DNA from: Yuukianura sp. NJ FZ-2021
Taxonomy: Eukaryota
Direction of reading: 5' to 3'
Length of the DNA stretch: 64,000 nucleotides
Assembly (NCBI GenBank): GCA_046563655.1
Contig: CM102286.1
Location: forward strand, 10,354,001-10,418,000
Below are positions 22,372 through 48,510 of this stretch, one piece after another. The notes beneath the pieces were generated by a model. That model did no database searches. It saw nothing but the letters and a program-made list of their open reading frames with translations, and had not been told where the DNA came from. Numbering within the stretch: position 1 is the first letter of the stretch; the number at the start of each line of letters is the position of its first letter. A program made the translations under genes and the position numbers.

Positions 22372-22510
22372 CATAAAAAACTTTTTAAAATACATGTAAC
22401 ACAAATATAATGGTTCAGAAACAAAACTGAATTGACTAAAAAAAGCAGCGAAACTTATAACAAAATTTTACGAAAATTTCCTTATTTTATCTTTCCACCG
22501 TATTCCAGAA

Positions 22511-25228: not shown

Positions 25229-25294
25229 GATTCCCAGCGATCAAGGGAGCCGCCACGGCGACAAACCGAGGAACTCCGAAGCGATTCGGGGAAG

Positions 25295-26506
25295 CTACTG
25301 AGATGGTGGAGGGGGATCCTTGGGATGATTCTTCTTAGGTGGTGGGGGACAATTGGCCGAGTTCTCTGCCCACCATCTAGCACGTCGCTGTTGGCGATTT
25401 GGGGCTTGGGGCAAACGTCCTTGTGCAGGAGCTGGGGGAAAACGTCCTTGTGCAGGAGCTGGGGGTACCGGAGCAGCGTTTGAAGGTTCCTGGGGGGTAT
25501 TCCACGTAACGGTGACTGACGTTGCGCTGGCTGGAACGTAGGCGTGAATGGGGATCAGTCCAGGGGGAACATTCGTTGCCTGGAACGTGGAGCTGGAAGC
25601 TGCTGCTGAGATGGGGATGGTGAAGGAACCGGAAGTGGCTTGGGGAACTGATGAGGAGGCTTGGGGAGCTGCTTGAGCTTGGGGAACTGGTTGAGCTGAG
25701 GAAGTAGAAGAACCAGAGGCAGAATTTTGGCGGGAATTTGAAGAATGTGGCCGAATTGATGAAGATGGAGCCGAATTTTGAGCCAATGGAGGACGAGTAG
25801 AGTACGGAGCGGGACGATTTGGGCGAGTGAGAATCCGAATAGGTGCAGCCGATCGTGATGAAGTGCTCGGTCCAGGGTTTTGGGGGGTTTGAGAGTTCAG
25901 AGTGACTTTTGCCATGTCACGAACCAAGACGGAGGGGGAACTGGAACGGGAATGACCAGCTACGGGGGGTTTTGGAGGTCCATCGGGGAACTTCAAATCC
26001 ATAAGCGGGACGACCTTGGCTGCAGCAGACTTCTGGACTTGCGAATTGGATTTCGGCGCAGGAGCAGAGGGACGACGAAACATTCCAGATTGCTGAGACG
26101 AGTTGGGGACAACGACGACGACCGAAGCTAACTTTGGACGAGGTGCTGGGGCCGAAACCATCTCCTGGAGGCTCTTTTGAGGGGAACGGGGGTTGAAACT
26201 GCCAGAGCTTTGGGGGGACTGACGATCCGGCTTCTTCGGGGATTTTGGAGGAGAATCAGCAGCGAGTGGCATGTCCCAATCATCCGGAATCGGATCCACA
26301 CGACGAGGAGTAATGGGCGCAGCGATGACAGTCGTAGGGGGCGAAGATGACGAAGATGAAGACGACGATGAAGAGCCAGGAGAAGCAGTATCACGCGGAG
26401 GCGGAGAATTCAGGAGTTCGTCTTCTGCAGCCAAATCAATTTCCGCAATTCCCTCAGAAGCGTCATCTTCTCCTTGTTCCATCAGATCCTCCGGTGGTTG
26501 GTCCAT
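25295..26506 (-). CDS. Retroelement ORF3: Pro/Ser-rich low-complexity protein (~403 aa), probably from a spliced subgenomic RNA
   Basis: Lies between pol and the 3' LTR; strong acceptor TTTTTTTATGATTTTCAG|G immediately before the ATG at 26506; no signal peptide or TM segment. Confidence 0.7.
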   Translation of the reverse strand: MDQPPEDLMEQGEDDASEGIAEIDLAAEDELLNSPPPRDTASPGSSSSSSSSSSSPPTTVIAAPITPRRVDPIPDDWDMPLAADSPPKSPKKPDRQSPQSSGSFNPRSPQKSLQEMVSAPAPRPKLASVVVVVPNSSQQSGMFRRPSAPAPKSNSQVQKSAAAKVVPLMDLKFPDGPPKPPVAGHSRSSSPSVLVRDMAKVTLNSQTPQNPGPSTSSRSAAPIRILTRPNRPAPYSTRPPLAQNSAPSSSIRPHSSNSRQNSASGSSTSSAQPVPQAQAAPQASSSVPQATSGSFTIPISAAASSSTFQATNVPPGLIPIHAYVPASATSVTVTWNTPQEPSNAAPVPPAPAQGRFPPAPAQGRLPQAPNRQQRRARWWAENSANCPPPPKKNHPKDPPPPSQ

Positions 26507-26555
26507 CCTGAAAATCATAAAAAAACACAGTATGAGTATTAAATAAAACACTCAG

Positions 26556-29500: not shown

Positions 29501-31587
29501 CTTGATTTTGGATTTCTCTCCGCTCCGTGAAACCGGTTCTATGGGGATTGGATGCTATCGGTTTCGCAGTTCCTGTGTCAATTTTGTGGGTCGTTAAATG
29601 AGTACGGCCAAGAGTTGATGGATCGAAATTAAAAACATCCAAATTTGATACAAGAAAATCCTGCATCTTTTGGCGCTGTTCAGGGGTTAGGGTTTTGGAG
29701 ATCTTAAACGCCTCAATCCTCTTTTGCAGTTTCAGAGACGCGATGTCATTATCATCATCAACTGCAAGTCCGAGGATTTCGTGCGCTGGGAGAGAGGAAT
29801 GGGACAATTTGGAGCTCACATGACCGAATTCGTCTAAGTCACAGAGCACTGAGGACTCTGCGAAGGGTTCGAAGGTGCCTATGGAGATATTTTGCAGAAG
29901 TTTTACTGGTCGGTCTCCTAAATTCCACAGGAAAGTAACTCCTGCGCCATCCTTGAGGGTGGAAATAAAATTTCCAATGGCGATATGTTTTGCATACTGG
30001 AGTTCCTGACGAGGGGAAACAAGAACATCCCCGGTGAAAGGGAGATCTGTCTTGACGCTTACGCGTTTCATAGTTCTTGGGTTGATGATAATGGACCTGA
30101 CCAGTCGTAGGCACGGAGGGGGCGAAGATTTTTGTGACAAATTCGAATTACTGACGAAGGAAACTTCAGAGTCAAGTAACGAAGGGGATTTAGGGGAATC
30201 AGACGAATTCTGGGTCATGTCATGAACTAGTTTAGGGGGATTGGCCGTACAAGGGGGATTTGACACAGGTTCCGGATCCGACGCGATGGGAGAGCTCGGG
30301 GTATCTGAAACTTGTTCAGTTTCAGACAATGTTAATTTGTTTAGAACAGGGACTTGGGATTTAGGTACACAGACATACTCATTTCTGAGGTCTGTGCAGG
30401 GGAGTTCACCTTTTACAAGGCGCTCGTTAGCGGGATCCAAGAGAAAACGTTCTGAACGGAGAAAGTCAGAACCCAAAACGATTTCATTTGAAAGGTGCTG
30501 GAAAATATAGAATGGGTATTGGAAGGGGACACCATCAATGGAGAAAGAGATCATTGTAGTTTGGGGGGGAATTACAACGAACGTACGAACCAAAGGACAG
30601 TTTCACACGAACGGGTTCCACATCAACCGCTTGGGACACAATATGGGGGAATTTCCGTAGAAAATCGGGGTGGACACAACAAAGGGAAGCACCTGTGTCA
30701 CACAGGACTCGGAGTGTTTGGGTACCGAAGACTACATCAGTGTGGAACGTAGAATGTTGGGTAGAATGGATTTGGGACATGAATTTAGCCACAGAAATTC
30801 CCATAGGAAATTCGGACTCGGGGACTGGGGAATTGAATAGGGACCCATGTTCAAGGTTTGAATCTGGGGTACTGGAATTTGCAGCTAGGATCTCTGGGGA
30901 ACTATTAACCCAGTCAGCAGTTCTGCCTTGGATCGAGGGGGGATTTCCAAATTTTGAAGTGAGCGAAACAGCTTTAGGATCTGGAGCAAAACGACAAATT
31001 TCGTCTTTGGGATCTGTTTTCGGATCATAGGGCCAATGAGCAGAGGTACCAACACAAACAGAAGCAGCTTTTGGAGCGGGAACGGAACTTTGAGCAAATA
31101 TTTTCGGATCAGTAGCGTCAGTTTTCGGATCTGGAACATAAATAGGAGCAAGATTAGAACTAGGATCAATTTTAGGAGCCGACTTAGGAGCAAAATTAAT
31201 TTTAGGATCAGTTATCGGAGCAAAATTAGGATCAGAATTAGGAACTATTGGAGCGTCAGAACAGGGAATAGGTAACTTGGTTGTAAGGTTCCCAGCGATC
31301 AAAGTTGAAGTAGGGCTGGGGGTACAACATTGGGAACATTTCTGCTTTTGGACAAAAAGAGCTTCAAGTTTGTTAAAGAACTCTTCTATGGAAAATGGAC
31401 TTTGAAATTGGGGCTTCCTGCCAAAAGCCTTGCAATTTCTGTGGGTTTGGAAAGTAGGGGACTTGAATTTTCGAATTTTGGAACGTTTGGGACAAGCTCT
31501 TATAGGAGCTGGGACCAAATTTTTAGGGACTGAAATTGGGGTGGGTAGAGGCTGTCGTCCCTGCAACGGCAGCTCTACTGGTTTTCC
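26556..31587 (-). CDS. pol: Gypsy pol polyprotein (linker-protease-RT-RNase H-integrase), with a 1-nt frameshift at the G7 run 30563-30569
   Basis: Protease LCDTGAS and IVLGSDFL; RT RFCVDFRKVN, MPFGLTNAP, YLDD; RNase H CDASG, TDHHSL; integrase HHCC (H..SHLG..CHLC) and DDE core (AVDYIGP, SDRG, CERHN). Confidence 0.93.
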
Positions 31588-32896
31588 GGAGGCGGTGTTT
31601 GTTTAGGAAGGACGGCTGCAGCGATGTTCTGGAGAAGATCCGTCATTGTTCCAAAGGCAGTCATCATCGTCTTGGTCCAATCAGCATCCGGACGAGGAAC
31701 ATTTTGAGACTGTGCTGGAGGGTTTGGACTGGTTTGCAATGGGCGAGTGTCAATATTTGGGTAGGGACGTTGAACAGCCTGGCTATAATAGCCTTGCTGC
31801 TGGGGGATACAGGCTGAGGGGAATGGTCTGCTGGGAGTGCACGCTGAGGGCCATTGTAACCCGGGAGCCGCCAAGTAGGGGTGTGACAGTGTTTTCTAAT
31901 GTGCCCACTTCGGTTACAGCGATTGCATATCGGTCGTCCTTCTGCATCCCGACGATTCACGAAACTGGTTGGTTGTGAAGCCGTTTGACCAGCAGCTTGA
32001 GGGGTAGCAGGAACATTGGGCTGTTGTTGGATCTGGGGAGGGGACGACTGAGGGAACTGCATTGGGGGGTTAGGGGCAGCTGCCATTTCAAAAGCCTGCA
32101 TAGAGACTACAGGGGAAGAGCCATCTTTGGGACGGGTATGGACTTCTGCAACTCGTCGTAGAATTTTCTGAAAGTCGGAGGGGGTTTGGATATTGAGCAT
32201 TACAAAACCTTTTTCAAGGTCTGCTGGGAGTCCACGAATGAGATATTCAACCTTTCGGCTGTCACTCATCTTGGGATCCAAACGAGACAAAATAACAATT
32301 TTGTCCGCTACGTATTTGTCAATACAGTCACCCAATTTGTAACGTAGGGACTTATTCTGGGCTCTGAAATCATCTCTACGCTCTTTAAGGGAAAAATGGG
32401 AAATGAACTGAGTTCCAAATTCAGTCCAGACAGCCTCAGGATCTTTAGTGGGATCTTCCAGTTGTTCTCGAAAGTGGGGCCAAATTGAGATGAACCAAGA
32501 GCTAGCGACTCCAGTCAAAACTCTGTCGAAGTGGCTCAATGCTCCATAAGATCCGAATCCAGTTCCTCTCAGATCGTATTCGTAGCGTGCAAGGAATTCT
32601 GCAGGGTCACTCGTTCCATCGTACTTCCGGATATGCTTGAAAATTTTAATGTCCTGGGTACAAGGGAAGGGGGCATTGGGAGCCATATTGGCTTGTGTAC
32701 CATCGCTGTACACAGAACCAGGAGTAGCTGGTTGCTGCGGATTGTTAGGAACTGGAGGGGGCATAGCAAAAGTAGGATGGTAGTTTTGTTGTGCTGGTTG
32801 CATGGGGATTGTGGACTGGGATGGGGAAGGGCCTTGTTGTTGCGGTTGACCTTGTACTGGAGGGGAAGACCTGGGTCTCGCAAAATATGTCAACAT
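31575..32896 (-). CDS. gag: Gypsy gag, with an apparent 1-nt frameshift at the G5 run near 31802-31806
   Basis: Capsid-like region (KYDGTSDPAEFLARYE, YLIRGLP); zinc knuckle CNRCNRSGHIRKHC; the C-terminal Q/P-rich frame (31575-31874) ends ENQ-stop over a GGAAAAC slippery-type site. Confidence 0.85.
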
Positions 32897-32907
32897 TTGG
32901 GAACTCC

Positions 32908-33321
32908 TTAGTATCTTCGTTCTTGCAGACGGGGATTCTCGTATTCAAAGACAAGCCAGCCTTGGGTACTTGCGTAGTATTTGAAACACCAGCGGTAAAT
33001 GGGACTGAAGAAGCTCCAATGATAGTACAAGAGTCTAACCAAAAGAGCTAGACAGTAGTAGGTTTCAGTTCCGACAAGGACTCCAAGTAGTTCTGCGTAA
33101 GCTCGAGGATTTCGTCTTAGGTAGAGTACAGGGGCAACGTGTAGGGCCAAAAAATCAACAAAGACGGAAAAAGTCGATGCTACACAGGACTGGGTAATTT
33201 CAGCAACCAGTAGGGAGAATAGGTACAGGACTTCGGATAGGAACAGGATTAAACAGCTTGCAAAAAATAAAGCTGTTCCAGCAATTAGAATAGTTCGGAT
33301 TAGGGGCCAAGCGATCCACAT
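32908..33321 (-). CDS. Hydrophobic 137-aa ORF upstream of gag (putative multi-pass membrane protein)
   Basis: ATG-initiated; several long hydrophobic stretches; ends 11 nt before the gag ATG. Confidence 0.45.
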   Translation of the reverse strand: MWIAWPLIRTILIAGTALFFASCLILFLSEVLYLFSLLVAEITQSCVASTFSVFVDFLALHVAPVLYLRRNPRAYAELLGVLVGTETYYCLALLVRLLYYHWSFFSPIYRWCFKYYASTQGWLVFEYENPRLQERRY

Positions 33322-33368
33322 TTGCAGTGGGTTTCACTTAAACCACAACCACTTTTCAGCGTTTGGGC

Positions 33369-33485
33369 TTATTGTAGGAAGTTGAGCAAAATAGAAATCA
33401 AAAAGAATAGTGTAAGGTACTGGACAACAACTGCAATAACTGCTATGAGTATGATCAGAACGATGGCAATGAAGGGGTGGGACAT
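33369..33485 (-). CDS. 38-aa hydrophobic small ORF in the retroelement leader
   Basis: Manual translation MSHPFIAIVLIILIAVIAVVVQYLTLFFLISILLNFLQ-stop; below the ORF-track cutoff. Confidence 0.35.
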   Translation of the reverse strand: MSHPFIAIVLIILIAVIAVVVQYLTLFFLISILLNFLQ

Positions 33486-35082
33486 CTCTCGGGTCAGTTC
33501 AGGGACTTTCTACAATACTTAAGAAAAGAATTAATAAACCAAAAACTATTAAGAATTGCAAATAATTTAAACTTACACCTAAAAAAAAGAAATATGGAAT
33601 TCAAAATTTATGGGAGGGTTCTTTAGAAGCTGCTGTCTAGGGCTATGGATTCAAAACGAAACCAAAATCCACCAAACAGAACTTAAAATCGAAGAAAGAA
33701 TAGAACAATAAACAAAAAGATAACGAGCTGAAGTGACGGAGCAGCCAAGCCAAACCAAATTACAAAACCGTAGAGCCACAAAGTTAATTCAAAAATTGTC
33801 ATTTCTGAATTATTTTGAACCACATTGGAAGGAATAGGGTATAGGGTACTTGGGTAACTTCAGTTGCGTTGAATGCGATTGAAATTCGCAAGGGCGGGAA
33901 AATCTGCGAAGTCCGAGGTTTAGGTAGACCTCACATTAACATACTATTTCTAGTAGCTGTAGGAAAGTTCAAAGTTTTTCAACTTTTCAGAAATTTGGGC
34001 AGGGGTTTGGGGTAGCAAAACAACTTCTGAATTTGAAAGGTGGACAAAAATCTTTAATTCTAATTAATCAGGACGAAAACGCAACGTATTTTGAATTTAG
34101 GGAACGATTAGAGCCGGTTTCTGAAAAATCCGACTAGTCAGGGGAAAAGTGAAGCCTGCGTACGGTTGTAGTTGCGGGGTAATTGGAAATCGGAAAAATC
34201 TGCCGACTCTGGGGAATAGTCACTTACGCAACAAAATTTGCAAAAGCGCGAAAATTTCAAACTGTTTTAGATTTCAAAAAAAATTTGACAGGGGGGTGTT
34301 AGGGGGTTCAACTTTTTTAATTTAGGACGTTTTCAAAAAAATTTTCAAACCAAATTTTCAAAAATTTTCAATTTAAGGGACAGGGGGCAATAACTTTTTG
34401 AAAAGGGGGGCCAAAAGCTATGGGGATAAGGGACTACGTTGTAGGGGAGCTGCTTTTAGGTAGCTGGGGCGCTGCGCTATTTTTAAAAAAACTTTGAATT
34501 TCGAAAAAAACGCTTATTTTGAAAAAAAACGCTAAGTTTTTGAAAATTTAAAAAATTTTGACAGGGGGACGGGGTATTTTTACCAAAAGTTGCTGGGGAG
34601 GGACACGTTTGCTCAAAAAAAACAAAAAAACAAAACGCGCAAAGAAAAACGAAAGAACGCTGACCTTGTGTGACCTTGTCACAGGCAGACGAAGGACGAA
34701 GAAGATGACGTGGTCCGAGGTGACGTGGCCAAGTGATGTGTAGCGTGGAGAGGGTGTGGAGCGTGGAATTCGGCTCTACGGCTGCTTTGGCTGGTGATGT
34801 GGCGTGGATGGAGCGTGGGTGGAGTGGCTTTGGCTCTGGCTACGGCGTGGCTTCTGCTCCAAACTCGCTTTCTCTAGAAAAAACTGAAAAAAATCGAAAC
34901 AAAATTAGAAAATAACGAAAAAAACGATGAAAAAAAAAAATGAAAAAAATGAAAAAAATTAGGTAGGGGTCACGGGTGGGACTTGGGTGGAGCCGGTTGG
35001 CTCCAATTGGTATGATTCCGCTTCGGCTGTGTAGAGGTCAAGGTGAGGTCACGGGCTTCGGTTCCCGGCTGTAGCGCCCACT

Positions 35083-35565
35083 TGAGGGGAAGTCGGATGA
35101 CTTTCCCGACGACTGGCTCAAAGGCCACTCGACAGCAATAAATGGTGGGACGGTGGGACACACGGCTACAAGGATCAATTAGTTTATTTGAATAAAGTAA
35201 AGATACGTTTACGTATGAATAGCCGATGAATTTGTAGTGGAAGTGTCGAGAGGTCCTGGCACGATCAACCAGGTATCTTCTTGGTCTGTCCAGGGTCCAG
35301 GAGAGATGAATTGAGGTCAAGTCCGGGTCAATCGAGGCAGTAGCGTGTCCAGACACGAAGAAGGAAAATGGCTGCTACTGGGAACTGGAGTGACGAGCAG
35401 ATGGGATCCTCTCTGTGTGAGTTGTTGTGGACGACTGTGTCCAGAGAAGATGGAGGAGGAAGAAGAAGATGATGATGCAACTGCCAGAAGAAGCGGAGGA
35501 GTACAGGAGCGGAGGAGTACGGGGAACCACGAAGGCTAGAGGGGTTTTGGGGATACCTCCCCACA
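35083..35565 (-). repeat. 5' LTR, followed on the minus strand by a PBS-like sequence (AG-TGGGCGCTACAGCCGGGAAC)
   Basis: Direct repeat of 24746-25228; TGG begins 2 nt inside the LTR boundary. The priming tRNA was not identified. Confidence 0.93.
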
Positions 35566-38500
35566 TCATTAAATAACAACGCCGCGGAACAAACATTTGG
35601 AAGTCCAAATTCAACAGCACTTGAAAGAGTATTTCGAGAAGCACTGGAAGATGCTGGAGTTAACCCTGCCAGGGTTAGCTTAGTTGAAACTCATGGGACA
35701 GGAACAAAAGTTGGAGGTAAGCATTACTACTTTCAAATTTGTATTGTTTGCATTCAAATTTTGATCAAAGGCAATATTAAATTTGGCATTATACCTTTCT
35801 ACTTGTTGTTGACTTTAAGATCCAGTAGAAATGACTGCAGTGGAACACGTTTATTCTCGAGGAAGATCAACTGATGACCCACTTCTGGTGACTTCTGTAA
35901 AAACAAATATAGGGCACTCTGAAGCCTGTGCTGGTTTGGCGGGATTAATCAAAGTCCTCCTCTGCTTCAAACACAACCGAGTCCCACCGAATCTTCATTT
36001 TCAAAAATTGAACCCCAACATAAATATTCACAAAATTCCGGCGATCATTCCTGTGGAAGCCACTGAATGGAAAAATGAAAACCGATTTGCTGCGGTTTGT
36101 TCATATGGCATGAGTGGAACCAACGTCCATATAATCCTTCAAGAGCCACCGACAAAGAAGAAACTGATGAAAATTGCCGAAGAAAAACCTGCAGCAATTG
36201 AGATAGAAATGATTTGCATTTCTGCAAAAACAAGGGAGGCATTGGAAAATATGTGTCAGAAATACATATCACGTTTTGAACAAAATCCGAAACTAGCTTT
36301 GAGCGACATCGCATTTACTCTGAATACTGGAAGAGCAAACTTTCCTCATCGGATTGCAGTTGTTGCCAAAGACATGGAGCAACTCATCACAAAGCTGAAG
36401 CAAAAGAATTATGTCACAGGAAAAACTTCTCTACAAGAACAGAAAGTTATATTTTTGTTCACAGGTCAAGGGTCACAGTACTTTGGAATGGCCAAAACCC
36501 TGTACGAAGCCAACTTAATCTTTCGCAAAGCCCTTCAGCGATGTGAAACGCTGTTCCAGAAGTACTTGGCATGCTCACTGAAGGAAGTTCTGTGGGGAAA
36601 TCCTGCTTTATTGGACAAAACAATTTACTGCCAGCCTGCAATTTTCGCAGTTCAATTTTCTCTGGTCCAGTTATGGCATTCGTTTGGAATTTATCCTGAC
36701 ACTGTCTCAGGCCACAGTGTTGGTGAATTCTGCGCAGCTGTTTGCGCAGGCGTATTAACACTGGAAGATGGAATGAAACTGGTCGCCAGCAGAAGTAAGC
36801 TCGTAGATTCTCTTGAAGAAGGAAAAATGTTGGTCGTAAAAACTTCGCTTGAAAGTGCTCGGAGTTTGATTGAAAAATTCAGCCAATCTATTCCCAATGC
36901 TTTTATTGATATTGCCGCCGATAATTCTGGCGAAGAAGTCGTAGTTTCGGGAACAGTCACAAACGTAAAGGAATTTGCAATCTATTGTGAACGGCGAGGA
37001 CTTAAAGTCCAATTTATTGCCGCATCTCATGCATTCCACTCCCGTCTAATGGACATGGTTTTGGCAGAATACGGATTGGTTGCAGCGAGCGTGAAACCAC
37101 AAAAACCGAAGTGTCGTTACATTTCTGGTACACTAGCGCGTGAGTTGAAGCAAGATGATTTTAGTTCCAGTTATTGGTTGCATCACTTTCGAGATACTGT
37201 CAGGTTTCGTGACGCCGTTAAACTTATCGAAAATATCTTCGCCAACGACAAAAGAGTTTTTGTAGAAATTGGAACCCAACCAATTTTGTTGAGCCTGACT
37301 ATGGCAAATCAGCCCAATCCTACGGACGACGTGTTTTGCCCTTCACTACGCAGGACTGAACACGACATGTCTTCTATTTTAAATTCTTTATCAAAGATGT
37401 ATGTGACTGGAGTTGACATTTCATGGAAAAATTGGTTCCTTCAAGCAAACAAATTGAATCTCCCGACGTATCCATTTCAGCGTCGAAAGTTTTGGTTTGA
37501 ATGGACAAACGTTGATGCTGAAATCGAACATTCATTTTCACTACATCCAATTCTTGGACGTCGGCTACCGACAGCAGGAGTAGAAGCTGTGTTTAGTCAA
37601 ACCTTGACTAACAAGGCTATACCATACATCACAGATCACCGTGTTGCAGAGCGCATAATTTTTCCTGCGGCAGCATACTTGGAAACCATAATGGCCGCTG
37701 GGTGGCACGTTATACAACGCGGAGAAGGCGAACTCCAGTTTTCTGTACAAAATTTCAGAGTAGAGGTTCCACTGGAACTGAACAAGTCATGCCGCATTCA
37801 AACAATCGTTCGGCCAATAGGAGATAATGATTTCAGATACGAAGTTTCAATTCACAAGCAATCTCCTCATGATCCGCAAAATTGGAAGCGACATGCATAT
37901 GCGACGCTTATTCCGAATCATGCGGCTTCTTTCGTCACTTGCGTTGACATAAATGCGATGCAACAAGAGATGGAGTTGGTAGACTCGATGAACAAGATTT
38001 ATTATGAATTAGCTAAGGTCGGGTACCAATTTGGGCCTAAGTTCAGGTCAATTTCTCGAGTTTGGATTGGAAAGGATAGACTTCTGGCGGAAATTGAAAT
38101 GCCAGAAAAACATGACAGTTACATACGTCACCCAATTATTCTGGATACGATGATACAAACAGTCATCGTCAAACAAGTAGCGATACATAAAGAAAACGCT
38201 ATTCTGAAACTTCAATTACCAATTGGAATCAAACAGTTCACGTGGAATTCGAAAACATTTTCTCCAAAGGTTTTCGCATACTTGGAAAATTTTCAAGAGT
38301 CGAGTACAGTAACCTTGATGAATGATGTTGGAAAAAACATGGCGGTAATGGAAGGGGTGGAATTCATTGAGACATCGTTGTCAAGATTCCTGCATATGTT
38401 AAATCCACAAGCAGATTCGCCGCCGACATTTTTACAAGAAGTATGGCGAGCAAGGGATGGAATCACGCGGAACCGAATTGACACTCAAATATTTCAATTG

Positions 38501-41500
38501 GACTCATTTCATTTTGTAAATTCTACCTTGGAATCTATTGCCGAAATGGAAGACAACTTGACGAGTAGTGTCGAGATTATTGACAAATTATTTGTCCTGT
38601 TTCTTCTAAAGGGAATTTCAGAATCTGCATGGCCCTGGCCAAATATTGGAGAAAACATTATTAGCAGCGATTGGGCGAAATTGGCACCAGGACTTGAAAT
38701 TGTAAAATCGGGAAAACTTATGGACATCCTTGCACAGTTTTCCTATTTGAGAAAAAATAGAGACGCAACTTATCAAGTTTTGCAAATACTCCCGAATTTG
38801 GAAGAAATAGAAAAGCAAGTTTTGAATGAATTGGAGCAATACAAAAAATTATCAAGAAGCAAAGAAAGTGTGATATTGGAATTTGCAAAACGGTGTGGTT
38901 TCCATCTTCCAAATCTCTTGCAACAAAGAATGACGCCAGTTTCATACATGTTCCCAGATGATCCGAAAGAAGTTGGTGCTTTAAGTCTACATTCAGAAGG
39001 TGAGAACTTGTTTACGAATTGCATGTACTATATTCCTATTGTGTTTCTTAATCTCCAGAGGAAAATCTTTAACCATTTTTTTTTTCGAAATTTAAAATTT
39101 TAGGAGAAGGGCTTAAGGAAATTGTTTCGGTGGCAACGTCTTTGCTTCTGGATTGCACATACAATTCAGCAGAGCGAAACGGAGTTTTGAGGGTTCTTGA
39201 AGTTGGCGCTGGTTCGGGAATCAGTTGCAGTGTGATTCTAGAAGCCTTCGCAAAGCTCAAAGTTCCTTTCAAATACAGTTTCACTGATATTTCACCACAC
39301 TTCCTAAACAAGGCGAAAAAGAAATTCAAAGATGGAGTTACATTTGCTTTGTTCAACATCGAAGACGATCCTCTTAGTCAAGGGTTTGCTCCAGAAGAGT
39401 TCGATGTCATCATTGGGATCAACGTTGTTCATGCAACTGCGGATATTTTGCAAACACTCAAAAACCTAAACATGGTACTTCGAGATGGCGGAATTCTCGT
39501 GCTCGGAGAGATGTTTGTGGATCTCACTTACATAAACTTGTCGTTTGGATTTTTGGACGGTTGGTGGAGGTCAACGGACGGGAGAGCTGGTTCACCACTT
39601 CTCACTCGAGATCAATGGAAGAGCGCTTTTGAACAAAGTGGACTTGTTCAAACAAAAATTTTTTCGTTTTTGAACGAAAGTTTCGGAGCTATAGCAGGAC
39701 AAAAAAGGCGTGAAAAATATCGGATCAATTCTGCGCTAACTGCGCAAACAGACATGGCATGTTGGCTAATTGCTACAGACGGAACCGAATTAGTGTCAAA
39801 ATTGTCACTAATGTTGCGCAGCGTTGGGCGTAGTGTGACACAATACGATTCATCGCAAAGTATTCCACATGGACTGGAGGGAGTGGTGTTCTTCTGGACG
39901 CAGGTTCGCAAAGAAGATGAAAACCAAGAAAGATGCAAACTGCTTCTGAGTTTGGTCCAGAAACTCGATTCTGCATATCAGACTAGCATGGTGAAGCCAA
40001 AACTAATTGTGGTTACACGAGGAGTCAATTATTTGTTCGATGCTAGTCCGGGAAATCCGAATTCTGCTACGGTGACTTCCTTTATTCGATCTTTTGCAAA
40101 CGAAAACAGAGACTTTAAAGTCACCGCAATTGACCTTGATCAGGATGAGGTCAATTTTGAAAGGGAGGCAGAGGAAACATTTGCCATGCTGTGGTCACAA
40201 GAAAACGAAATGTTTAGAGCAGTTCGAGAGGATCAAGTTCTTGTGCAGAGATTGACATTTGCTGACACAGCGAAGGACAAACTTTCATTTCCAAAGTCGA
40301 GTCGAATTCATGTAATTAAACCTGTCACTAACAATTTGAATGACTTGGAAATTTCCGTGGCTTCAAAAGTGACTCCAGTTGAGGATGAAGTTGAAATATC
40401 AGTGAGAGCAACGGGACTAAACTTCAGAGATCTCTTTCTTATTCTTCAACCAGAGGGATTTGTAGATCCAATAACTTACAATCCACAGCCAGGTTTAGAA
40501 GTTGCGGGAATAGTCTCGGCTACTGGACCATCTTGTACGAGATTTAAAATCGGCGACCCCGTTTTTGGAGCTGTACTAGGAAATGGACTGGCTTCACACG
40601 TCACAGTTTCCTCTCAATATTTGATTCGAAAACCCGACAATATGACATTTACATCTGCTGCAACTATTCCTGTTGCATTCCTCACATCTTTCTATGGACT
40701 GCTGGAACTGACAAAATTGAGGTCAAAAGAGCGAGTTCTCATTCACGTTGCCACTGGAGGAGTCGGGCTCGCAGCGATTCAAATTGCCAAGCATATTGGC
40801 GCTGAAATATTTGCAACAGCAGGCAGCAAACGGAAGCGAGCATACCTTAGATCCATTGGAATCCAACATGTCTATCACTCCAGAACCACGGACTTTGGTG
40901 ATGAAATTTTGAACGACACCAATGGCGCAGGAGTTGACGTTGTGCTGAACTCACTCACAGGTTGCGGTTTTAAAGAAGCGTCTCTTAAAGCTTGTGCTCA
41001 AAATGCTCGATTCATAGAAATTGGAAAAGTGAATATTTGGAGCAAAGAAGAAGTGCAAGCGTTACGTTCTGATGTAAAATATTTTATTCTGATTCTACCT
41101 TTGGGAGTTAAAAAAGAACAGCAAACAATATCAGAGATTATGGCTACAATCGAAACAGAATTGGGAAACGGGTTATACACTGCACTTCCCAATCAATCGT
41201 TTTCGCTGGATCGAGTTGGTGAAGCATTTTCATTTTTTCAAGGAGCAAAACACATCGGTAAGCTTGTTGTTACGATTCCGGAAACGAAGATTTCTCCAGA
41301 TAATGAAATTATCTTTGAACAACGAATTTTCCATCCGCAAAGTACATACCTCATTACGGGAGGGTTGGGTGGAATCGGCTTGGAAGTTGCTAAGTGGATG
41401 AGTAGATTAGGAGCCACCAACCTTGTTCTCGTTGGACGCAGTAAACCATCAAAATATGCCAACGAAGTGCTGTCGCTACTGAACAAAGAAGGATGCCGAA

Positions 41501-44169
41501 CAGTAGCACTTCAAGCAAATGTCGGGATTTATGAACACGTTGTGTCTCTACTTAAATACCTAAAAACTTCGAATTTTCCACCACTTCGGGGAATTATGCA
41601 TGCAGCAGGAGTACTATCTGATGGAGCAGTGGCGAATCAGTGTTGGAAAAATTTCGAAGAAGTGTTTCAACCAAAAGTTAATGGAACTTGGAACTTGCAC
41701 AATTTAACCCTCGGTTACGACTTGGAATTCTTCGTCCTGTTTTCCAGTGTAGCGTCAAATTTTGGAACACAAGGGCAGAGTAACCATTCAGCCGCAAATC
41801 GATTTTTGGACTCATTTGCACAGTACCGTCATTCTTTAGGTCTTCCTGCTTCTAGCGTTAATTTTGGCGCATGGGCTGAGGTAAGTACTTCTTAAATTGC
41901 ATGTTACTCAAATGGAAAAATATTGCAATATTTTATAAGTTTTTGATCTCAAACTTTTCCTAGGTTGGACTAGCAGTGGAGGGCGACATTCTTCGGAGTG
42001 AATTGCTTGGTATTCGCAGTTTTTCTCCAGAGCAAGGTTTGGCAGCTCTGCAAGATGTGATTCAAGAACACAGAGTCCAGTGTGGCATTTTGAATGTTTC
42101 CGATTGGGCCACAGTTAAAAATGCTTTCAAACTGGGAAACTACTTGGATGAAATTAGGTCTGGCAATCCAGTTTCAAAAAGCACAACTAGTGGGGAAATA
42201 TTGATCCAAACGGAAATCGCAGAAGCTATCGATGCAATAGAAAGACGGAAGAAGATTGAAGAATTTGTTCATACAGTTTTAAAAGAGACGATTCGTGTTG
42301 ACGCTGACGAAGAGTTGGACCCAGATAAACATTTTGCGGAGTTTGGAGTGGACTCTCTTATGACAATTGAACTGCGCAATCGTCTTCAAACTATTCTTCC
42401 AAAGAACCAATTACTTCTCAGCTCGATTCAAGCAAATCGTACAATTCGAAAACTTTCGAGTCACTTGGAAAATCTAATGACTTCTCAAGTTCCCGTTTCG
42501 CCACTGGAAGACATTGTTAGGCGTGATTCGGATTTACCGGAAGAAATTCAACCCACCGAAGTTTCACCTTCTAAACCAAGCGAATTCAAAGAAATTCTGG
42601 TAACAGGAGCCACAGGTCACTTGGGGGTCAACTTCATTCCAGCCCTACAAAAAGAAAATCCAAACTTGATCATCCATTGCATTGTGCGTGGAAAAAATTC
42701 AGCGGAAGCTAATGAACGATTAATGGAAACGCTGCGCTTGTATTCTTTGCTTCCTAAAATCAATTTCGAAAAAATCAGAGTTCTTGCGGGCGATTTGTCG
42801 AGAACAAATTTTGATCTTGCCGAGGAAGTTTATGACGATTTGACACGGCGTGTCGACGCAGTAGTGCACTGCGCAGCTAAAGCCAACCATGTAGAAGAGT
42901 ACGATGGACTTGGAGAAGATAGTGTACGCACGGTAAATGTGTTTGGTACCATTAACGTGTTGCGTTTCGCCACAACCGGTAAAACCAAAGCTATTTTGCA
43001 TGCATCTTCGATGATTACAATAACAACTGCTAACGCAGCAAGAATTTGTATGGAAGATTTCCCGGACAAAAACGACAATGGAATGTTTTTAAAAAATGGG
43101 TATGCGCTAAGTAAGTTTGTTTGTGAAAAATTAATGTCACAAGCTTTGGCTCGCGGCATACCGGTAACTGTCATACGCTATGTCAGTGTTTTTGGAGACA
43201 GCAAAACTGGATACATGCGCAATAACAACGATCATGGTTTGGCTATCTTGGCTTCGTGTATTCGTGTTGGCATGTTTCCTCCGTTGTGGAATGGAGGCTA
43301 TCCAATCATGCCCGTTGACGCAGCAGTAAATATTTCCGCCAAAATATTCTTGCGAGATTCATCTGAGACTGGAGTTTACAATTTGACGAGTTCCTCCACC
43401 ATATCGCGAGATGAGGTCAAGGAGGTTTTTGCTAAATTTGGAATACATGGAGAGTTTGTTCCATTTTCTAAATGGGTTGAAACTGTCTTCGCAGAAACTG
43501 ATTCCCGGAAGAACGACCTTTCTCCATTTCTGGAACTGTACCGTCACGATAACAGTCAAAAAAGCTCTGTAGTGAATATACATCCCCTTGGAACTGAATT
43601 GGCTACGCTGCAACTGAATCGTATAAGCGATAAGGTGCTCATCAACTGTCCAGAAGCTGCATCTGAAATAATGCCTACAAAACAATTCTTTGAACTAATT
43701 CTTCACTATTACGTTAATAATCGGAAAGATAGAGCTTAGAGTTACGAAAATGTGGTTTAAGAAAAGTAGATATGCAACCTTTAGTGTCACTTTCTATTAC
43801 GTACATTTTCCGCCAGAGTTTCCCGTCTCTTTCCGAAAAATTCAGTGGAAGCTTCAAACGTAATTTTACTTCTAGAGGTTTGCAGACTCAAATTTTGTCT
43901 CCAACTTGGATCGGTTTCATGTTAAATGGTGCTTGAACGAATTTGCTTAGGAAAATCGATTTCTATCGCATGTAATAACCAATAAATACGAAAGTGTTAC
44001 CCAATACAACTGAAACTTTTATTCAATATGTTGTTGCCGTTCCTCACAAATTGTCACAATAAAAAAAAAGTTTTCTCATGGAATTTCTGTAATTAGCACG
44101 TCTATAAACTGTATATAAGTGTTATAATAAACTTCTTGTAAAGACGATGTAAATAAATACCGTCAGGTC

Positions 44170-44600: not shown

Positions 44601-44772
44601 CCCTATAAGTATCTCACGATACTTAATAAATGGTCATCATGATCAGTGAGGATATGCTCTTCTGAGTGATCTACACTCGTAACAATAGAATACAATTGTA
44701 AAACAATACAACCGTAAGAGTTGCAAAATGACGCCGTAAACCATTGAGATGTATTTTGTACAACGTTTATTA

Positions 44773-47290
44773 CATAGTTATCAACTGCTGTGATGAAAGA
44801 TTTAGGATGATATGTACGGTTATGAACAATGTACGTTCCTTTTCTTGTTGAGGTAGTATTTTCTGAATAAGCCCCGATTTCATTTGGCATTGAACTGAAA
44901 TACGCGATATTGTGTTCAATAATTGAAGAGTAGATGAAAAGGTGATCCACGGTGCTCAAGTAGTGAGGTAAAAGCCAATTTAATCGTTGGACAGACGATT
45001 TCACACAATCACGTTTTTTCAATCCGAAAATGTAACGGATACACCGTCGAAATGTTTTGTTCACATAGTTGAATTTGTAATGCTTTGCTTTTGACCAAAG
45101 TACTATTAAGTAGCGTATTACTGGATATATGTATGCGCTGATCATTAGTTTTCTGTTCTGGAACGACAATAGGTGTTGAATTGGATGGAGAGACCATAGT
45201 ATTTTGTTACACTTTTTAACAACGCTGGTTATGTGCTCAGTCCATGAAAGAGTGTTGTCCAGTATCAAGCCAAGCGTTTTAAAAGAATCGACGTTCTCAA
45301 TTTCGGTGTTACGTACTTTGACTTGAAATCGACCAATACTTTTTATTTGGCTTGCTTTCCCAATAAGAAGCACTTTTGTTTTCTCTAAACTCAGACCCAT
45401 GTGGTTGTGATGAGTCCAGGAAGTTATGGAGGAAATTGTTTCTTCAGCTCTTCTGATTAATTGACGAAACTGGTCTGGCGGGCTTCCCATGACGATGTTG
45501 TTGTCATCCGCGAAAAGCACTGGTACTCCGTCTTTAATTGCAAGTGAGAGATCGTTTATCATAATGGAGAAAAGGAAAGGACCCAGTACTGAGCCTTGAG
45601 GAACTGATAAAATTGTTTCTCTGGATTGTGAAGTCACACCATTTACCTTTACACTCTGAGATCTGTCGTTCAAATATGATTCAAACCACGAAGATGAAAC
45701 GTTGTACCATCTCAGTTTTTCACAAAGAATGCCTTTGTTCACACTGTCGAAGGCTTTCTTTAAATCCATTGAAATAACCATACACAAATCACCGCGATTT
45801 AGATGGCTATAAATTAGTTCGGTGAGGGCTATTTGTGCCATTGTGGTAGAATGATGATCACGAAACCCAAATTGTGCACTACTGAGTAAACTGTGGCGAT
45901 TGAAGAATAATTTTAGCTGATTGAGGGCGAACTTTTCACATAATTTCGCAATTACTGGTTGTAGAGAAATTGGGCGTGTTTCGTTTGGATGTGATGGTTT
46001 GGGTACTTTAGGTAGCGGTATTACTGATGAATGTTTGAGACATTTAGGAAAAGTTCCACTTCTCAGCGTTTTGTTGATAAGGTAGATGATCTGTTTTTCA
46101 ATATTAGGTGATCCAAGGCAGTGTGCTAATATCCAGTTTGACATTCCAAAATTATCTTTGCTTTTGCTATTCTTGTTTTTTAGATTCTTCCAAGTTTGCT
46201 TGAACATTGAAGTGGTTACGTCGGAGAAACTAAACTGATCAGCGGGTGTGATGATGAGATCTGGTTTCGTTGGTAAAAGAGTAGAAACAAATTGTGGTGT
46301 GGTAATTGAAGTGAAATAGTCATTAATTTCGTCTGCTGAGAACTGCAGAATTTGATTTTTTGAATTTGCAGGTGAACGGATCTTTGCAATCGCTTTGAAT
46401 GGGCCAAGCTTTTTTATATCAATGTTGAGTGCGTCTCTCCTGTCTTGAGCGATTTTTAATTTCAATGACTTCGTAAGTTTTCTCAGATGTGCATGCTGGA
46501 CCTGGGACAGTGGTTTCATACTTTCTAACTTTCTTCTCTCTGTCATAAGCATTTTAGTGTGATCAGAAAGTACGAGTGGTAGTGGTCGCGGAACGAAGGA
46601 AACATTACGTACTTTAACTGTAGATTCAAAATTAGAATTGATTTTTGACATGGACGCAGTGAAGAGAGAGTCAAGATCATCTGTTTCTGAATTGTCAAAT
46701 GTTGTATAGATTGATTTCAATCCAAATTCTTCAAAATCAAAGTTGTTGTAGTCGTGGTATTGGAATGTCGTGTTTTTACTTTTGGTTTTGACAGATTCAC
46801 AGACACCGATGTAACACTGTGATCAGAAATGGACGGATCAAAGATCTTAACATCAAGTACAAGATCCGGATGATTGCAGAAAATTAAATCCAGAACAGAG
46901 TCACCACGGGTCGGAATTTTAACTAATTGTTTGAAGATAGCATTAAGGTGTTTCACTCCGTGTTTACATCTCTGAGGAATGTAAGAAGGGTTAAGGTTAA
47001 AGTCACCAAGCACAAACGAAGCATTCTTGATAATATTAAGTTCACTAAACAGTTTCACAATAGTGTCAAGGTCACAGTCAATGATTGCATGGTTGTAGTT
47101 TGGGATTCTGTAGACACTGCTGATTAATATAGATTTGTTGTAGTTTAATTGAATTTTTGCTGTGATCACTTCCATGTTCTTGTTTTCGGGTAATTCAATG
47201 TTTTTTACGTTAAATTTTAAAGATGATCGTAGGAGGATTCCGACTCCTCCTTTTCCTTGCCAGTCGCGATCTTTATAACAAAGACATGAC
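44773..47290 (-). mobile_element. Truncated non-LTR retrotransposon (LINE, CR1/L2/Jockey group) ORF2 with APE endonuclease and RT, frameshifted near 46740
   Basis: APE: GKGGVGILL, SSVYRIP, LGDFN, PTRGDSVLDLIF, ISDH. RT: RPISL, QFGFR, SMDLKKAFDSV, VPQGSVLGP, FADD. No ORF1 or poly(A) seen; absent from unit B. Confidence 0.9.
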
Positions 47291-47619
47291 AAAGTCGGCA
47301 GCTGTACCGTCTGTAGTACGTTTGGGGGCAAGCTTGTTTAACTCGAAATTTTGTGTAAATCGTCATTTGTATAAATGGCCATTTGTTTCTTTTTATTATA
47401 ATACGCCATTTGTATAAATGGTCGCTATAAAAATCTTGGTTTGGGGGCATATCCGATGTAACTTAAAGCTAAGGTTAAACGATCTGCGTTTTTGTTTCCG
47501 CGTTCAAAATTTTATCTTAGCTTAGTAATGGTTACTGTTAGATTTCAAAACAAACAGGTAGTTACAGGATTTTAATCTAGAATCGTAGAATTCACTTCTC
47601 CATTTAACTTAAATTGGAA

Positions 47620-48510
47620 ATATATACCGCGCTTATATCGCATTTTCACTCTTCGGAACCGCGCTTGCATTAGAGTGTGCGCTTCTATTAGAATGCGCGC
47701 TTGCATTAGAATAAATACGGTACTTTGATTGTACTAATTTGATTCAAATCAAAGTGTAGCACTTAAATACAAGTTTTAGAAAAGACGATCGTTTGATCTC
47801 AGTTTTAAGTTAAAAGTGGTTCAGTACACTTCTATTAATACCACGGATGGTACCGCAGCTCACTTCGGAATACACCGACAACAAGTCTTCAGTTGGCTGA
47901 AGTAACAGCATAAAATCCGTAAAAATTTAGCTAATTTTAGCTTTCGACTCGAGAAAACAACTTTCTAAAGAAGCAGACAAAATGGTTTACGACTGGATTT
48001 TAAATCAGCGCACCAACCAGCAACGTGTCTCCTTCAAATCTATTCGTGTGAAAGCTAGGGAAATTTATTCAGCAGTGCTCCAAACACACGAAGTTCAGGC
48101 CAGCAGTGGTTGGCTACAAAAATTTATGAAGTGCCATGACCTCAGTTTGAGAAAGGAAACGTCGTTGGCACAAAGGGATCCACATTCGCTGTTTGAAAAG
48201 CTTGTTGAGTTCGTCATTTACACTTCCAACCTCGCTGTTACGAATAAAATTCTATTTCACTCAAGACTACCATGTTAACTATTTATAACTATTGCAATTC
48301 TCGACTTTTCATATTTCAAATTTCATTTTTTAAGGAAATGAAAAGGCTTACTGAAGAAAGCAACAGTGACACCAGTAACGAAGGGGATCACTATTAATTG
48401 AATTTAGGCTCACTTAAAACTTATTAATTATTCCGGTAATAAATAGTGTTCTAATAGAGGCGCGTCCGAAAGGTCGAAAATTCTTATAAGCGGCGCGCTT
48501 ATATTAGAGC
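47620..48510 (+). mobile_element. Degenerate pogo/Tigger-like transposon remnant
   Basis: ORF 47982-48278 encodes a CENP-B-type HTH (VYDWILNQR...IRVKAREI...ASSGWLQKFMKCHDLSLRK); GCGCTT..ATTAGA subterminal repeats at 47660-47712 and ~48445-48510; no DDE domain. Confidence 0.8.

Follow-up and report, generated by a model that had tools for sequence, protein, structure and literature searches.

Does the polyketide synthase (PKS) of microbial style that lies among animal genes in this springtail genome belong to the animal, where did it come from, and what may it make? We consider it somewhat better than an even bet that the locus represents a springtail PKS family (type I, highly reducing, iterative) whose members make methyl-branched fatty alcohols or aldehydes behind a glycogenin pseudo-enzyme, and that the copy described first, copy A, is null.

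Structure and state of the two copies

In the window, the whole 64,000-nucleotide stretch that was analysed, the first-pass annotation took positions 35,820-43,739 as the gene. A real PKS with two GT-AG introns (39,000-39,103 and 41,881-41,963) was found there, and the claim of spliceosomal introns thus held; however, the span covers only the 3' two-thirds of the gene, and six small glycogenin-like exons from 21,352 had been overlooked. In the genomic model, copy A starts at 21,352 and stops at 43,739 on the forward strand, comprises 12 GT-AG exons and encodes 3,186 aa in the order degenerate glycogenin (GT8)-KS-AT-DH-cMT-ER-KR-ACP-R, with the glycogenin-like N-terminus in frame with the KS. 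Exons 1-6 (21,352-23,636, with GT-AG borders and an open frame) encode the degenerate glycogenin/GT8-like domain, aa 1-260, and lie at 21,352-21,358, 21,457-21,601, 22,764-22,899, 23,028-23,187, 23,243-23,354, and 23,417-23,636. Exons 7 and 8 and the 5' part of exon 9 (23,717-24,745; Pfam ketoacyl-synt, E 4.5e-41) encode a linker and the N-terminal KS, and the 3' part of exon 9 (35,570-35,716) carries KS His602 in HGTGT (35,692). Exon 10 (35,820-38,999; Pfam) holds the KS C-terminus with His642, AT, DH, and the N-terminal part of the C-MT; exon 11 (39,104-41,880) the C-MT core, ER (GGVG), and KR; and exon 12 (41,964-43,739; Pfam PP-binding and NAD_binding_4) the ACP and the thioester-reductase R domain. 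Since the first Met of the copy A KS exon occurs only at or after residue 436, the KS needs the upstream exons. The possibility that the glycogenin exons form a separate gene was rejected, as no in-frame stop precedes the exon 6 donor and the KS exon has no usable Met.

The KS coding exon of copy A is split between Cys464 and His602 by a Ty3/gypsy-type LTR retrotransposon of 10,820 bp on the reverse strand (24,746-35,565). The element shows TG...CA LTRs (24,746-25,228 and 35,083-35,565) with 0/483 differences between them, an exact 4-bp target duplication, TCAT, at 24,742-24,745 and 35,566-35,569, a gag-like ORF (31,664-32,944), and an ORF in the Ty3/gypsy order RT-RNaseH-integrase (26,556-30,602). 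Other genome copies of this LTR family are 74-94% identical. Copy A has no uninterrupted chimeric reading frame; once the element is excluded, the 3,186-aa frame is open with canonical introns. Because the element interrupts the KS exon, copy A is very likely a null allele knocked out by a recent insertion, and it cannot be regarded as the working enzyme first proposed. Copy B or other paralogues probably fill its role.

Copy B (50,356-61,458, forward strand) is a tandem duplicate in which all 12 exons recur and the LTR element is absent, the insertion site being uninterrupted. The two copies are 93% identical in nucleotides over 8.65 kb, and dN/dS between them was 0.18-0.42 across seven domains, ACP and R not being among these. 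The ACPs of the two copies carry no synonymous differences. Besides the insertion, no decay of copy A was seen over 702 conserved columns, from which copies A and B each depart at 6/702. In this assembly, exon 11 of copy B has lost 1 bp near 57,855 and is frameshifted, and a B-type public contig covers the equivalent of this site without a gap.

Single-base indels in copy B and in several paralogues of this assembly could raise the suspicion that the LTR insertion, or the join between PKS and animal sequence, is an assembly artefact. We consider this highly improbable, since the target duplication is exact, the element has TG...CA ends, the site is empty in the paralogue, introns occur throughout, relatives lie on large contigs, and exons derive from glycogenin. 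Among the public contigs listed, none crosses the junction of element and PKS, and contig data of this kind cannot show absence. Contamination or a mis-join of the PKS region to the animal genes was likewise rejected. Integration into the animal genome, as first claimed, is borne out by the introns and by approximately 20 family loci on eight contigs of 6.6-15.5 Mb. Contiguity with two host genes was claimed as well. EMC3 (3,438-4,301, forward strand; Pfam EMC3_TMCO1) and a GRAMD1/Aster-like gene (5,507-10,814, borders approximate, reverse strand; Pfam GRAM and VASt) are indeed on the same contig, but the distance to the gene start downstream is 10-18 kb, and further ORFs lie in that interval.

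Catalytic domains and probable bacterial affinity of the PKS

The Pfam E-values of the main domains range from 1e-13 to 1e-59, so that the matches are not due to chance, and that of the ACP is 7e-8. All three KS residues of the first description are present, namely Cys464 in ESGCSS (24,389), His602, and the second His, His642 (35,915), but the Cys and the first His fall outside the span then given. The other motifs were confirmed at their positions: GHSVG (Ser at 36,716) and HAFH (37,028) in the AT; His1216 (37,637) and Asp1385 (38,144) in the DH; EVGAGSG (39,199) and NVVHA with His1779 (39,430) in the C-MT; the ER; GVDSL with Ser2726 (42,354) in the ACP; and TGATGHLG (42,603), HCAAK, YALSK (43,101), and RYV (43,176) in the R domain. 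The C-MT also has the dyad partner Glu1805 (39,508), and its SAM motif and His/Glu align with the C-MTs of CurJ, PsoF, and DisA, the best PDB matches; the dyad is as described in PMC9821293. Near the MT N-subdomain, copies A and B read LHS where several paralogues carry Tyr, and to judge from this difference their MT may be weaker. The R domain follows the ACP, contains GxxGxxG and the Ser/Thr-Tyr-Lys set (Ser2943, Tyr2975, Lys2979), and is best matched in the PDB by the MxaA R domain (E 4.7e-38). The RPG position varies over the family (RYV, RYA, RYP, RIP, RLP, RFP), and RYV is therefore not taken to mean an inactive R domain. The gene is upheld as a reducing PKS of one module, whose C-MT looks intact and whose R domain resembles that of MxaA.

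One feature was absent from the first-pass annotation. The KR has TGGLGGIG and LSD, and His2564 (41,785) replaces the catalytic Tyr. This His was found in 48/56 non-springtail-type modules with an MT and in 6/376 without one, and most bacterial C-methylating modules near the family share the change. A literature search for a CurJ ketoreductase with histidine in place of the catalytic tyrosine found no paper.

From sequence comparison, the family is a bacterial-type PKS and not an animal FAS, in agreement with the first description. Animal FAS ends in a thioesterase and its MT is a pseudo-MT; the springtail PKS, by contrast, has the SAM motif, the His/Glu MT, and a terminal R, although the core domain order is the same as in animal FAS and AFPKs (EcPKS1/2). 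In the KS+AT+ER+KR tree, the springtail clade groups with Nostoc, Scytonema, Chloroflexi, and other cMT modules at 100 SH-aLRT, and a springtail+FAS grouping was rejected (p-AU 0.009), fungal, animal-PKS, and AFPK rows not being part of these trees. Identity between the family and the genome's own FAS-like loci is 23-38%, and the trees place the two far apart. The KS exon matched bacterial modular PKSs in the PDB at 100-130 bits, LovB at 80, and human FAS at 74, and the MT-ER-KR exon had mycocerosic acid synthase (MAS) as its best overall match (339 bits), compared with 170/126 bits for EcPKS1/2. A few arthropod AFPKs end in R, according to Lin et al. (PMC10764717).

A bacterial origin of the PKS part is favoured by these comparisons. 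Alternatively, the family may be an old vertically inherited animal PKS lineage that was lost elsewhere. The KS phylogeny is equivocal here: the family does not fall within animal FAS, yet the KS alone is not nested in bacteria, as the springtail clade branches next to the other sequences instead of among them (support 0.55). Of the single-domain trees, AT nests the family in bacteria, and KS, ER, and KR do not. The stem is long with no close bacterial sister, and the GC content of the gene resembles its surroundings. Against vertical descent stand the nesting among bacterial cMT modules in the concatenated tree, the KS exon ranking, and a homologue search in whose best 120 matches the named eukaryotes were all springtails. 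A search with exon 10, dominated by multi-module bacterial PKSs, returned no named animal relative among its best 120, and no fungal name occurred in the best 120 of either search. A bacterial donor is also given in a supplementary table of Kapoor et al. 2026 (PMC13389597, Dataset S7). We therefore regard vertical inheritance as improbable, and the horizontal origin first suggested as possible gains, with bacteria as the donor, from the tree, the KR His, and that table.

Among known systems, the bacterial cis-AT C-methylating modules of CurJ and DisA share the KS-AT-DH-cMT-ER-KR-ACP order, the malonyl-type HAFH, and the His/Glu MT dyad; myxalamid MxaA has a similar NADPH R domain, and the KR His is common in bacterial cMT modules that have not been studied. 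The CurJ and DisA modules are, however, single assembly-line steps, whereas the springtail gene is a stand-alone module with introns, an ESGCSS KS, and a glycogenin head, and for this reason we only infer iteration. Fungal HR-PKSs (LovB and R-terminated HR-PKSs) are likewise single modules with the KS-AT-DH-cMT-ER-KR-ACP set and iterative SAM methylation, the latter being presumed here, but LovB is less similar to the springtail PKS than the bacterial modules are.

A degenerate glycogenin in springtail chimeras

The N-terminal domain descends from glycogenin. The PDB matches of exon 2 are all glycogenins (19/19), though weak (best E 0.1); the GT8-like domain scored 170 against the host glycogenin by Smith-Waterman, compared with a shuffle maximum of 51; and the O. 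dallaii protein P0139 showed glycogenin homology at E 1e-13 and was called GT8 by language-model features (0.96). Introns 3 and 4 of copy A share position and phase with their counterparts in the host glycogenin gene, intron 2 corresponds to human GYG1 c.143, and the fused domain has the intron phases of glycogenin (GYG1/GYG2, GT8), 1,2,0,1,2,0. Nothing beyond glycogenin exon 6 is included in the fusion, and the chimera accordingly lacks the C-terminal tail with which glycogenin binds glycogen synthase. Pfam did not detect the domain in single exons or in proteins P0139 and P0141, and a PF01501 genome search returned nine other GT8 loci and did not recover the fused exons. The best of these loci proved not to be glycogenin.

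The catalytic residues other than Tyr195 are those that we presume from glycogenin structures. Tyr195 is catalytic according to PMC11046441. The DxD of copy A reads DPK (22,885), as does that of copy B, and Lys87 is Met in both. None of the 17 aligned PKS-fused domains retains the second Asp of DxD, hardly any has Gln165 or Lys219 of the host enzyme, and His213 and Tyr198 are each kept in 1/17, the C-terminal half of this alignment being uncertain. Compared with glycogenin, the fused domain has thus lost the DxD, the metal-binding His, the acceptor Tyr, and most other active-site residues. Could it still be an active or substrate-binding glycosyltransferase, which glycosylates the released alcohol to alkyl glucosides? 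Purifying selection acts on the GT-A-sized domain as a whole (dN/dS 0.31 between copies A and B), three named species keep it, and the language-model features of the O. dallaii protein are still those of GT8. Given the active-site losses, we find such an activity very improbable; the domain appears instead to be a pseudo-enzyme with a presumably non-catalytic role, in dimerisation, stability, or tethering.

The chimera is shared by the family. All 15 genome matches to the glycogenin-like exon sit 0.7-2.8 kb upstream of a KS match; the exon is present at 13 of 19 other KS loci, and the GT8 exons are missing at 6/19. Two loci lack the MT (C3:2.596 Mb and C4:1.145 Mb) and two lack the R (C2:1.588 Mb and C4:11.02 Mb). 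The same architecture occurs in proteins of O. dallaii and O. cincta (Orchesella) and F. candida (Folsomia), with 22 chimeric genes each in F. candida and O. dallaii. The loci of this genome form their own clade, with approximately 45% KS identity to Orchesella and Folsomia.

The glycogenin-KS chimera is already catalogued in springtails, and copy A is a further member. Kapoor et al. 2026 (PMC13389597) list it in their supplements as HGT-chimera cluster 11, with F. candida XP_035703129.1 as representative and CAL8085358.1, ODM98078.1, and XP_021946548.1 among the members. As here, an N-terminal GT8_Glycogenin interval of metazoan descent precedes a PKS KS, inferred there to be of bacterial descent, in the tabulated cluster, which is multi-copy in springtails (Datasets S2, S6, S7, S14); Dataset S12 marks the representative's metazoan interval as without support. 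Six of the homologue proteins that we retrieved are listed members, and the copy A KS falls in one clade with listed members (KS tree 0.91; four-domain tree 100 SH-aLRT, a clade that also includes two more distant loci of this genome). The main text does not contain 'polyketide', 'PKS', or 'glycogenin', and cluster 11 appears in the supplementary datasets as table rows only, with no RT-PCR row and no functional-commonality row; the SI Appendix may say more. Unlike the present analysis, these tables do not treat the downstream domains, dead active site, shared introns, KR His, or product. For F. candida, Faddeeva-Vakhrusheva 2017 (PMC5490193) reports 30 type I PKS clusters with most cluster genes called HGT, and Lin 2024 (PMC10764717) lists OXA62418.1 as a horizontally acquired PKS distinct from AFPKs; as far as available, neither gives architecture, mechanism, or product, and 'glycogenin' does not occur in the main text of PMC5490193. 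Among the papers listed, literature searches found no glycogenin-polyketide synthase fusion by title or abstract start, and only unrelated titles for Collembola PKS/ketosynthase.

Predicted product and significance

In the scheme that we favour, with its presumed iteration, methylation, product, KR gating, and GT8 role, a bacterial C-methylating cis-AT module with its R would have been placed downstream of a duplicate of the host glycogenin gene and been spliced to its sixth exon. A PPTase would prime the ACP (a PPTase-family locus is present in the genome), the AT would load malonyl-CoA, and the KS would extend an acyl starter. In every cycle or only in some, the C-MT would use SAM to methylate the beta-keto thioester, possibly given time by the His-type KR, before full reduction by KR, DH, and ER. 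Finally, R with NADPH would release the chain as an aldehyde or alcohol, as R domains do (PMC8024701). What is released would be saturated, a fatty alcohol or aldehyde with methyl branches at positions 2,4,6..., and would serve in cuticular or signalling lipids; judging from the chemistry predicted here, our best guess is the polymethyl type found on springtail cuticles, where 2,4,6-trimethylhexadecyl esters and a hexamethylnonacosyl methyl ether occur (PMC11321324). Polymethyl lipids are known from Poduromorpha (Anurida, Xenylla), and the named homologues come from Entomobryomorpha. The F. candida cuticle bears mainly terpenes despite the 22 chimeric genes. The predicted polymethyl chain resembles the products of mycobacterial MAS, an enzyme without C-MT or R that takes its methyl groups from methylmalonyl-CoA.

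The same family may instead make a small defensive or antimicrobial polyketide, for instance a branched aldehyde of short chain length or an incompletely reduced chain, with the paralogues as a diversifying chemical arsenal. The roughly 20 loci here and 22 in each of the two other species, with domain loss and broken copies as under rapid turnover, fit this possibility, as do the few compounds on springtail cuticles. However, a complete KR-DH-ER set plus R favours saturated chains in PKS logic, and this set, the MAS match of the MT-ER-KR exon, and the polymethyl alcohol moieties of springtails speak for the lipid; we regard a defensive product as possible, if unlikely. The lipid reading can be extended, tentatively and with far less assurance than the family assignment, to the 1,3-polymethyl-branched cuticular alcohols, esters, and ethers in which springtails differ from insects: captured bacterial modules would make them with SAM as the methyl source and release them reductively, in place of FAS with methylmalonyl-CoA. 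The His-KR would then time reduction after methylation, and the dead glycogenin would serve as an N-terminal dimerisation element or glycogen-particle tether.

The surprise is limited in that the flagged copy A is a broken allele and the chimera was already catalogued. The association of the KR His with the C-MT may help PKS engineers, if not already known. An iScience survey ascribed the springtail polymethyl alcohol derivatives to the fatty acid pathway. Springtail genomes carry dozens of such synthases, and their cuticles carry polymethyl alcohol derivatives that have no assigned enzyme; the anatomy described here joins the two in one testable claim, with apparently intact loci named. It would also illustrate how a transferred gene is domesticated, here through fusion to a host gene that brought its introns along and has persisted as a pseudo-enzyme.

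Interrupted PKS gene and its tandem duplicate

Copy A, the flagged glycogenin-like (GT8)-KS-AT-DH-cMT-ER-KR-ACP-R gene, is a newly found and recently broken member of a springtail chimera family that is already catalogued. The KS C-terminus, AT, DH, MT, ER, KR, ACP, and NAD_binding_4 (R) domains were encoded at 35,819-43,739 across three long frames (35,819-39,103, 39,073-41,895, and 41,964-43,739). The first-pass annotation had quoted the PKS motifs from 35,820..43,739; all were found there except two, the KS Cys and the first KS His, which are outside that span. The remaining KS part, including Cys464, was located at 23,717-24,745, and the sequence upstream of 35,566 was a minus-strand Ty3/gypsy element with RT, RNase H, integrase, and a weak gag match (E 0.0025). 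Its LTRs (24,746-25,228 and 35,083-35,565) had TG...CA ends and were identical over 483 bp, and TCAT flanked the element on both sides. The element thus interrupts a coding exon, with the codon for the catalytic Cys on one side and that for the catalytic His on the other. When the element was omitted, copy A had 12 exons, GT-AG introns, and a single 3,186-aa frame from the ATG at 21,352 to the stop at 43,739. The insertion is very recent, because the LTRs differed at 0 of 483 positions (95% upper bound, 0.6%). Judged from its sequence, copy A should be null, because the antisense 10.8-kb element in the coding exon splits Cys464 from His602 and His642. Downstream of pol, the element also held a 418-aa Pro/Ser-rich ORF (25,295-26,551, minus strand), which had no Pfam match and was not recognisable as env.

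The tandem duplicate, copy B (50,356-61,458), shared 92.9% identity with copy A over 8.65 kb; it had the same exons, an empty insertion site, and a 1-bp deletion near 57,855. The dN/dS values between the two copies were 0.31 for the N-terminal domain, 0.24 for KS, 0.27 for AT, 0.42 for DH, 0.20 for MT, 0.26 for ER, and 0.18 for KR. Each copy departed from the consensus at 6 of 702 conserved columns, so that, apart from the insertion, copy A has no sign of decay. The copies were unusually similar around the ACP and the R start (approximately 42,200-43,100; 5-11 differences per 300 nt), with zero synonymous differences in the ACP, and this likeness may reflect gene conversion.

The two copies were separated by a non-LTR (LINE-type) element at 44,603-47,337 on the minus strand, whose endonuclease ORF (46,717-47,337) and RT ORF (44,603-46,822) were in different frames. 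A fragment with a Tc5/pogo-type transposase DNA-binding domain was present at 47,931-48,278 (plus strand). A 713-nt inverted repeat (488-1,200 and 2,332-3,044; 99%, with subrepeats of approximately 22 nt) enclosed around 1.1 kb and resembles a foldback or MITE-type element. Two long ORFs without Pfam matches, at 13,945-14,724 (plus) and 15,403-17,397 (minus), separate GRAMD1 from the PKS, the latter ORF having a signal-peptide-like start.

The stretch was contained in five runs from two studies, all of them DNA and none RNA, and contigs from four of the five were aligned to 22,500-42,400 at an 88% likeness threshold. Among the contigs listed, one joining 24,742 to 35,567, i.e., an empty site, was present in all four runs compared. 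In X1, one of the public DNA sequencing samples, this contig was of the copy-B type, since its 67 differences are as many as separate A from B and it has the copy B intron; it is thus no proof of an empty copy A allele. In sample X2, A-type letters occurred at equal depth (85.5 of 316.3) on either side of the insertion; it is suggested that X2 holds one A-type contig without the element. Record 28 of sample X4 spanned 39,787-40,431 with 27 other letters (A and B differ at 33) and no gap; since it is gap-free and B-like, there is a B-type allele that lacks the frameshift.

Springtail chimera family and its glycogenin-like head

When the KS exon was compared with the 98.7-Mb genome, 31 matches were obtained among 40 scored candidates, and 17 had E<1e-56. 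The glycogenin-like exon had 15 matches, each with a KS match 0.7-2.8 kb downstream, and such exons lay within 5 kb at 13 of the 19 other KS loci examined; the domain is dispensable in some paralogues. By tblastn, four loci (C4:1.155-1.166 Mb, C3:14.818-14.833 Mb, C5:4.367-4.379 Mb, and C7:4.502-4.514 Mb) were apparently complete, without frame breaks, and of the remaining ones some lacked the MT, some lacked the R, and some were broken. The full architecture was also found in Orchesella dallaii (CAL8085358.1 and others), O. cincta (ODM98078.1), and Folsomia candida (XP_035710254.1, XP_035712782.1, XP_035707663.1, and XP_021946548.1). In a long-protein search with the chimera N-terminus, the 9 of 47 matches that spanned 97% or more of the query were all from O. 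dallaii, and the bacterial matches covered mainly the KS start. On these grounds, the host is probably a springtail.

Such genes have been recorded before. In F. candida, 30 type I PKS clusters have been described, with most of the genes in them called HGT (PMC5490193), and Lin et al. treated one F. candida PKS as horizontally acquired (PMC10764717). In the HGT-chimera survey of Kapoor et al. 2026 (PMC13389597; Datasets S2, S4, S6, S7, S9, S11, S12, S13, S14, and S15), cluster 11 comprises genes of F. candida (22), O. cincta (3), and O. dallaii (22) with a metazoan GT8_Glycogenin interval, an HGT PKS_KS interval, and Bacteria as the donor. A term search of the main text found no discussion of cluster 11, and the cluster is absent from the F. 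candida RT-PCR rows of that survey.

Exons 1-6 of copy A encode the 260-aa glycogenin-like domain. With exon 2 alone as the query, each of the 19 PDB matches at E<=10 was a glycogenin (best E 0.1), and the alignment score with the host glycogenin (L082, C2:6.139 Mb) was 170, compared to a maximum of 51 in 500 shuffles. The intron phases of this part were 1,2,0,1,2,0. Intron 3 occupied the same alignment column as in the host glycogenin gene; intron 4 shared a Gly codon with it pairwise, with an offset of 7 columns in the multiple alignment; for introns 5 and 6 the phase was that of the host gene, but in a poorly aligned half. Intron 2 (codon 51, phase 2), in the register set by the PDB alignment of exon 2, coincided with human GYG1 intron 2, which falls after c.143 (PMC5735306), and the host glycogenin has no such intron. 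It follows from the introns common to the PKS head and glycogenin genes that the head was fused on as a duplicated genomic copy of glycogenin.

The DxD position reads DPK in this domain. Among 17 fused domains, the second Asp of DxD was kept in none, His213 in one, and Tyr198 in one. These positions belong to the glycogenin active site. The role of Tyr195 has been described (PMC11046441). The dead glycogenin would most likely be a structural or tethering part. Nine GT8 matches other than glycogenin (L073-L081) were also seen in the genome, including a cluster of four at C4:1.288-1.294 Mb; L073 (C3:3,424,574-3,425,401), the best match, has two exons and keeps DADML.

Relationship to FAS and bacterial PKS modules

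In the PDB ranking, the KS exon scored up to 130 bits with bacterial modular PKSs, 82 with the Dictyostelium-type Pks16, 80 with LovB, and 74 with human FAS. In a KS-only FastTree (164/656 KS domains), the springtail clade (0.91) was apart from FAS and was not nested in bacteria (0.55), and the single-domain trees placed it among bacteria in one of four (AT only). In quick searches under LG+G4 and LG+C20 on the KS, AT, ER, and KR concatenate (1,190 columns; 44/66 rows), the 17-row springtail clade was nested with Nostoc, Scytonema, Chloroflexi, KSB1, and Acidobacteriota modules with an SH-aLRT of 100, in a clade that leaves out the Streptomyces, Streptosporangium, Sorangium, and Polyangium rows. 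The springtail+FAS grouping was rejected on the concatenate (p-AU 0.009, LG+G4). In these trees many 'bacterial' rows are unnamed, FAS is represented by partial projections of three host loci, and the rows comprise neither fungal nor animal PKSs. The separation from animal FAS proposed earlier was borne out by the KS phylogeny, and bacterial nesting was missing from the KS-only tree. As a whole, the first-pass annotation, which read an iterative PKS of possibly horizontal origin, was confirmed in part as an observation and supported in part as an interpretation.

Two more distant PKSs (C5:7,113,853-7,121,698 and C7:5,608,801-5,615,139) were the family's sister in the trees; they had the KR Tyr and an altered or missing MT SAM motif, and no R domain was seen within the stretch fetched. 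Eight JGI/Logan metagenome proteins (P0333, P0337, P0339, P0347, P0349, P0156, P0140, and P0005), several labelled 'thioester reductase-like', carried the springtail ESGCSS KS motif or grouped with springtail PKSs; their source is probably springtail rather than bacterial DNA in the environmental samples.

KR histidine, C-MT, and predicted product

The KR catalytic Tyr position is occupied by His. Among non-springtail-type modules, which are related rows retrieved with this query, the KR His was present in 48 of 56 MT-bearing and 6 of 376 MT-less ones, one row with Asn being left out; given how the rows are related and were gathered, a p-value for this contrast carries no meaning. The 26 public springtail-type proteins, all with an MT, had His in 18 and Tyr in 8. 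In the own genome, every MT-bearing paralogue had the KR His, and of the MT-less paralogues one had Tyr and one His. A literature search found no report of this association between the KR His and C-MT, which may already be known.

HAFH indicates malonyl selection, LxD is the mark of a B-type KR, and a full PKS module that stands alone with a release domain is expected to iterate. The MT aligned with the C-MTs of PsoF, CurJ, and DisA (E 1e-33 to 4e-30) and retained the His and Glu of the C-MT dyad (PMC9821293). The closest match of the R was MxaA, and MxaA-like R domains release aldehydes or alcohols (PMC8024701). One PPTase-family locus was found in the genome. From these motifs, the product would be a saturated chain that bears alternating methyl groups and leaves the enzyme as an alcohol or aldehyde.

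In a survey of 23 springtail species (PMC11321324), Anurida maritima had 2,4,6-trimethylhexadecyl 2,4,6-trimethylhexadecanoate and Xenylla maritima 1-methoxy-2,4,6,8,10,12-hexamethylnonacosane; the survey assigns these lipids to the fatty acid pathway. The Anurida and Xenylla polymethyl lipids match the predicted product, but these species belong to a different order from the named homologues, and the F. candida cuticle is rich in terpenes. We hypothesize that the polymethyl cuticle lipids of springtails are made by the chimera PKS family.
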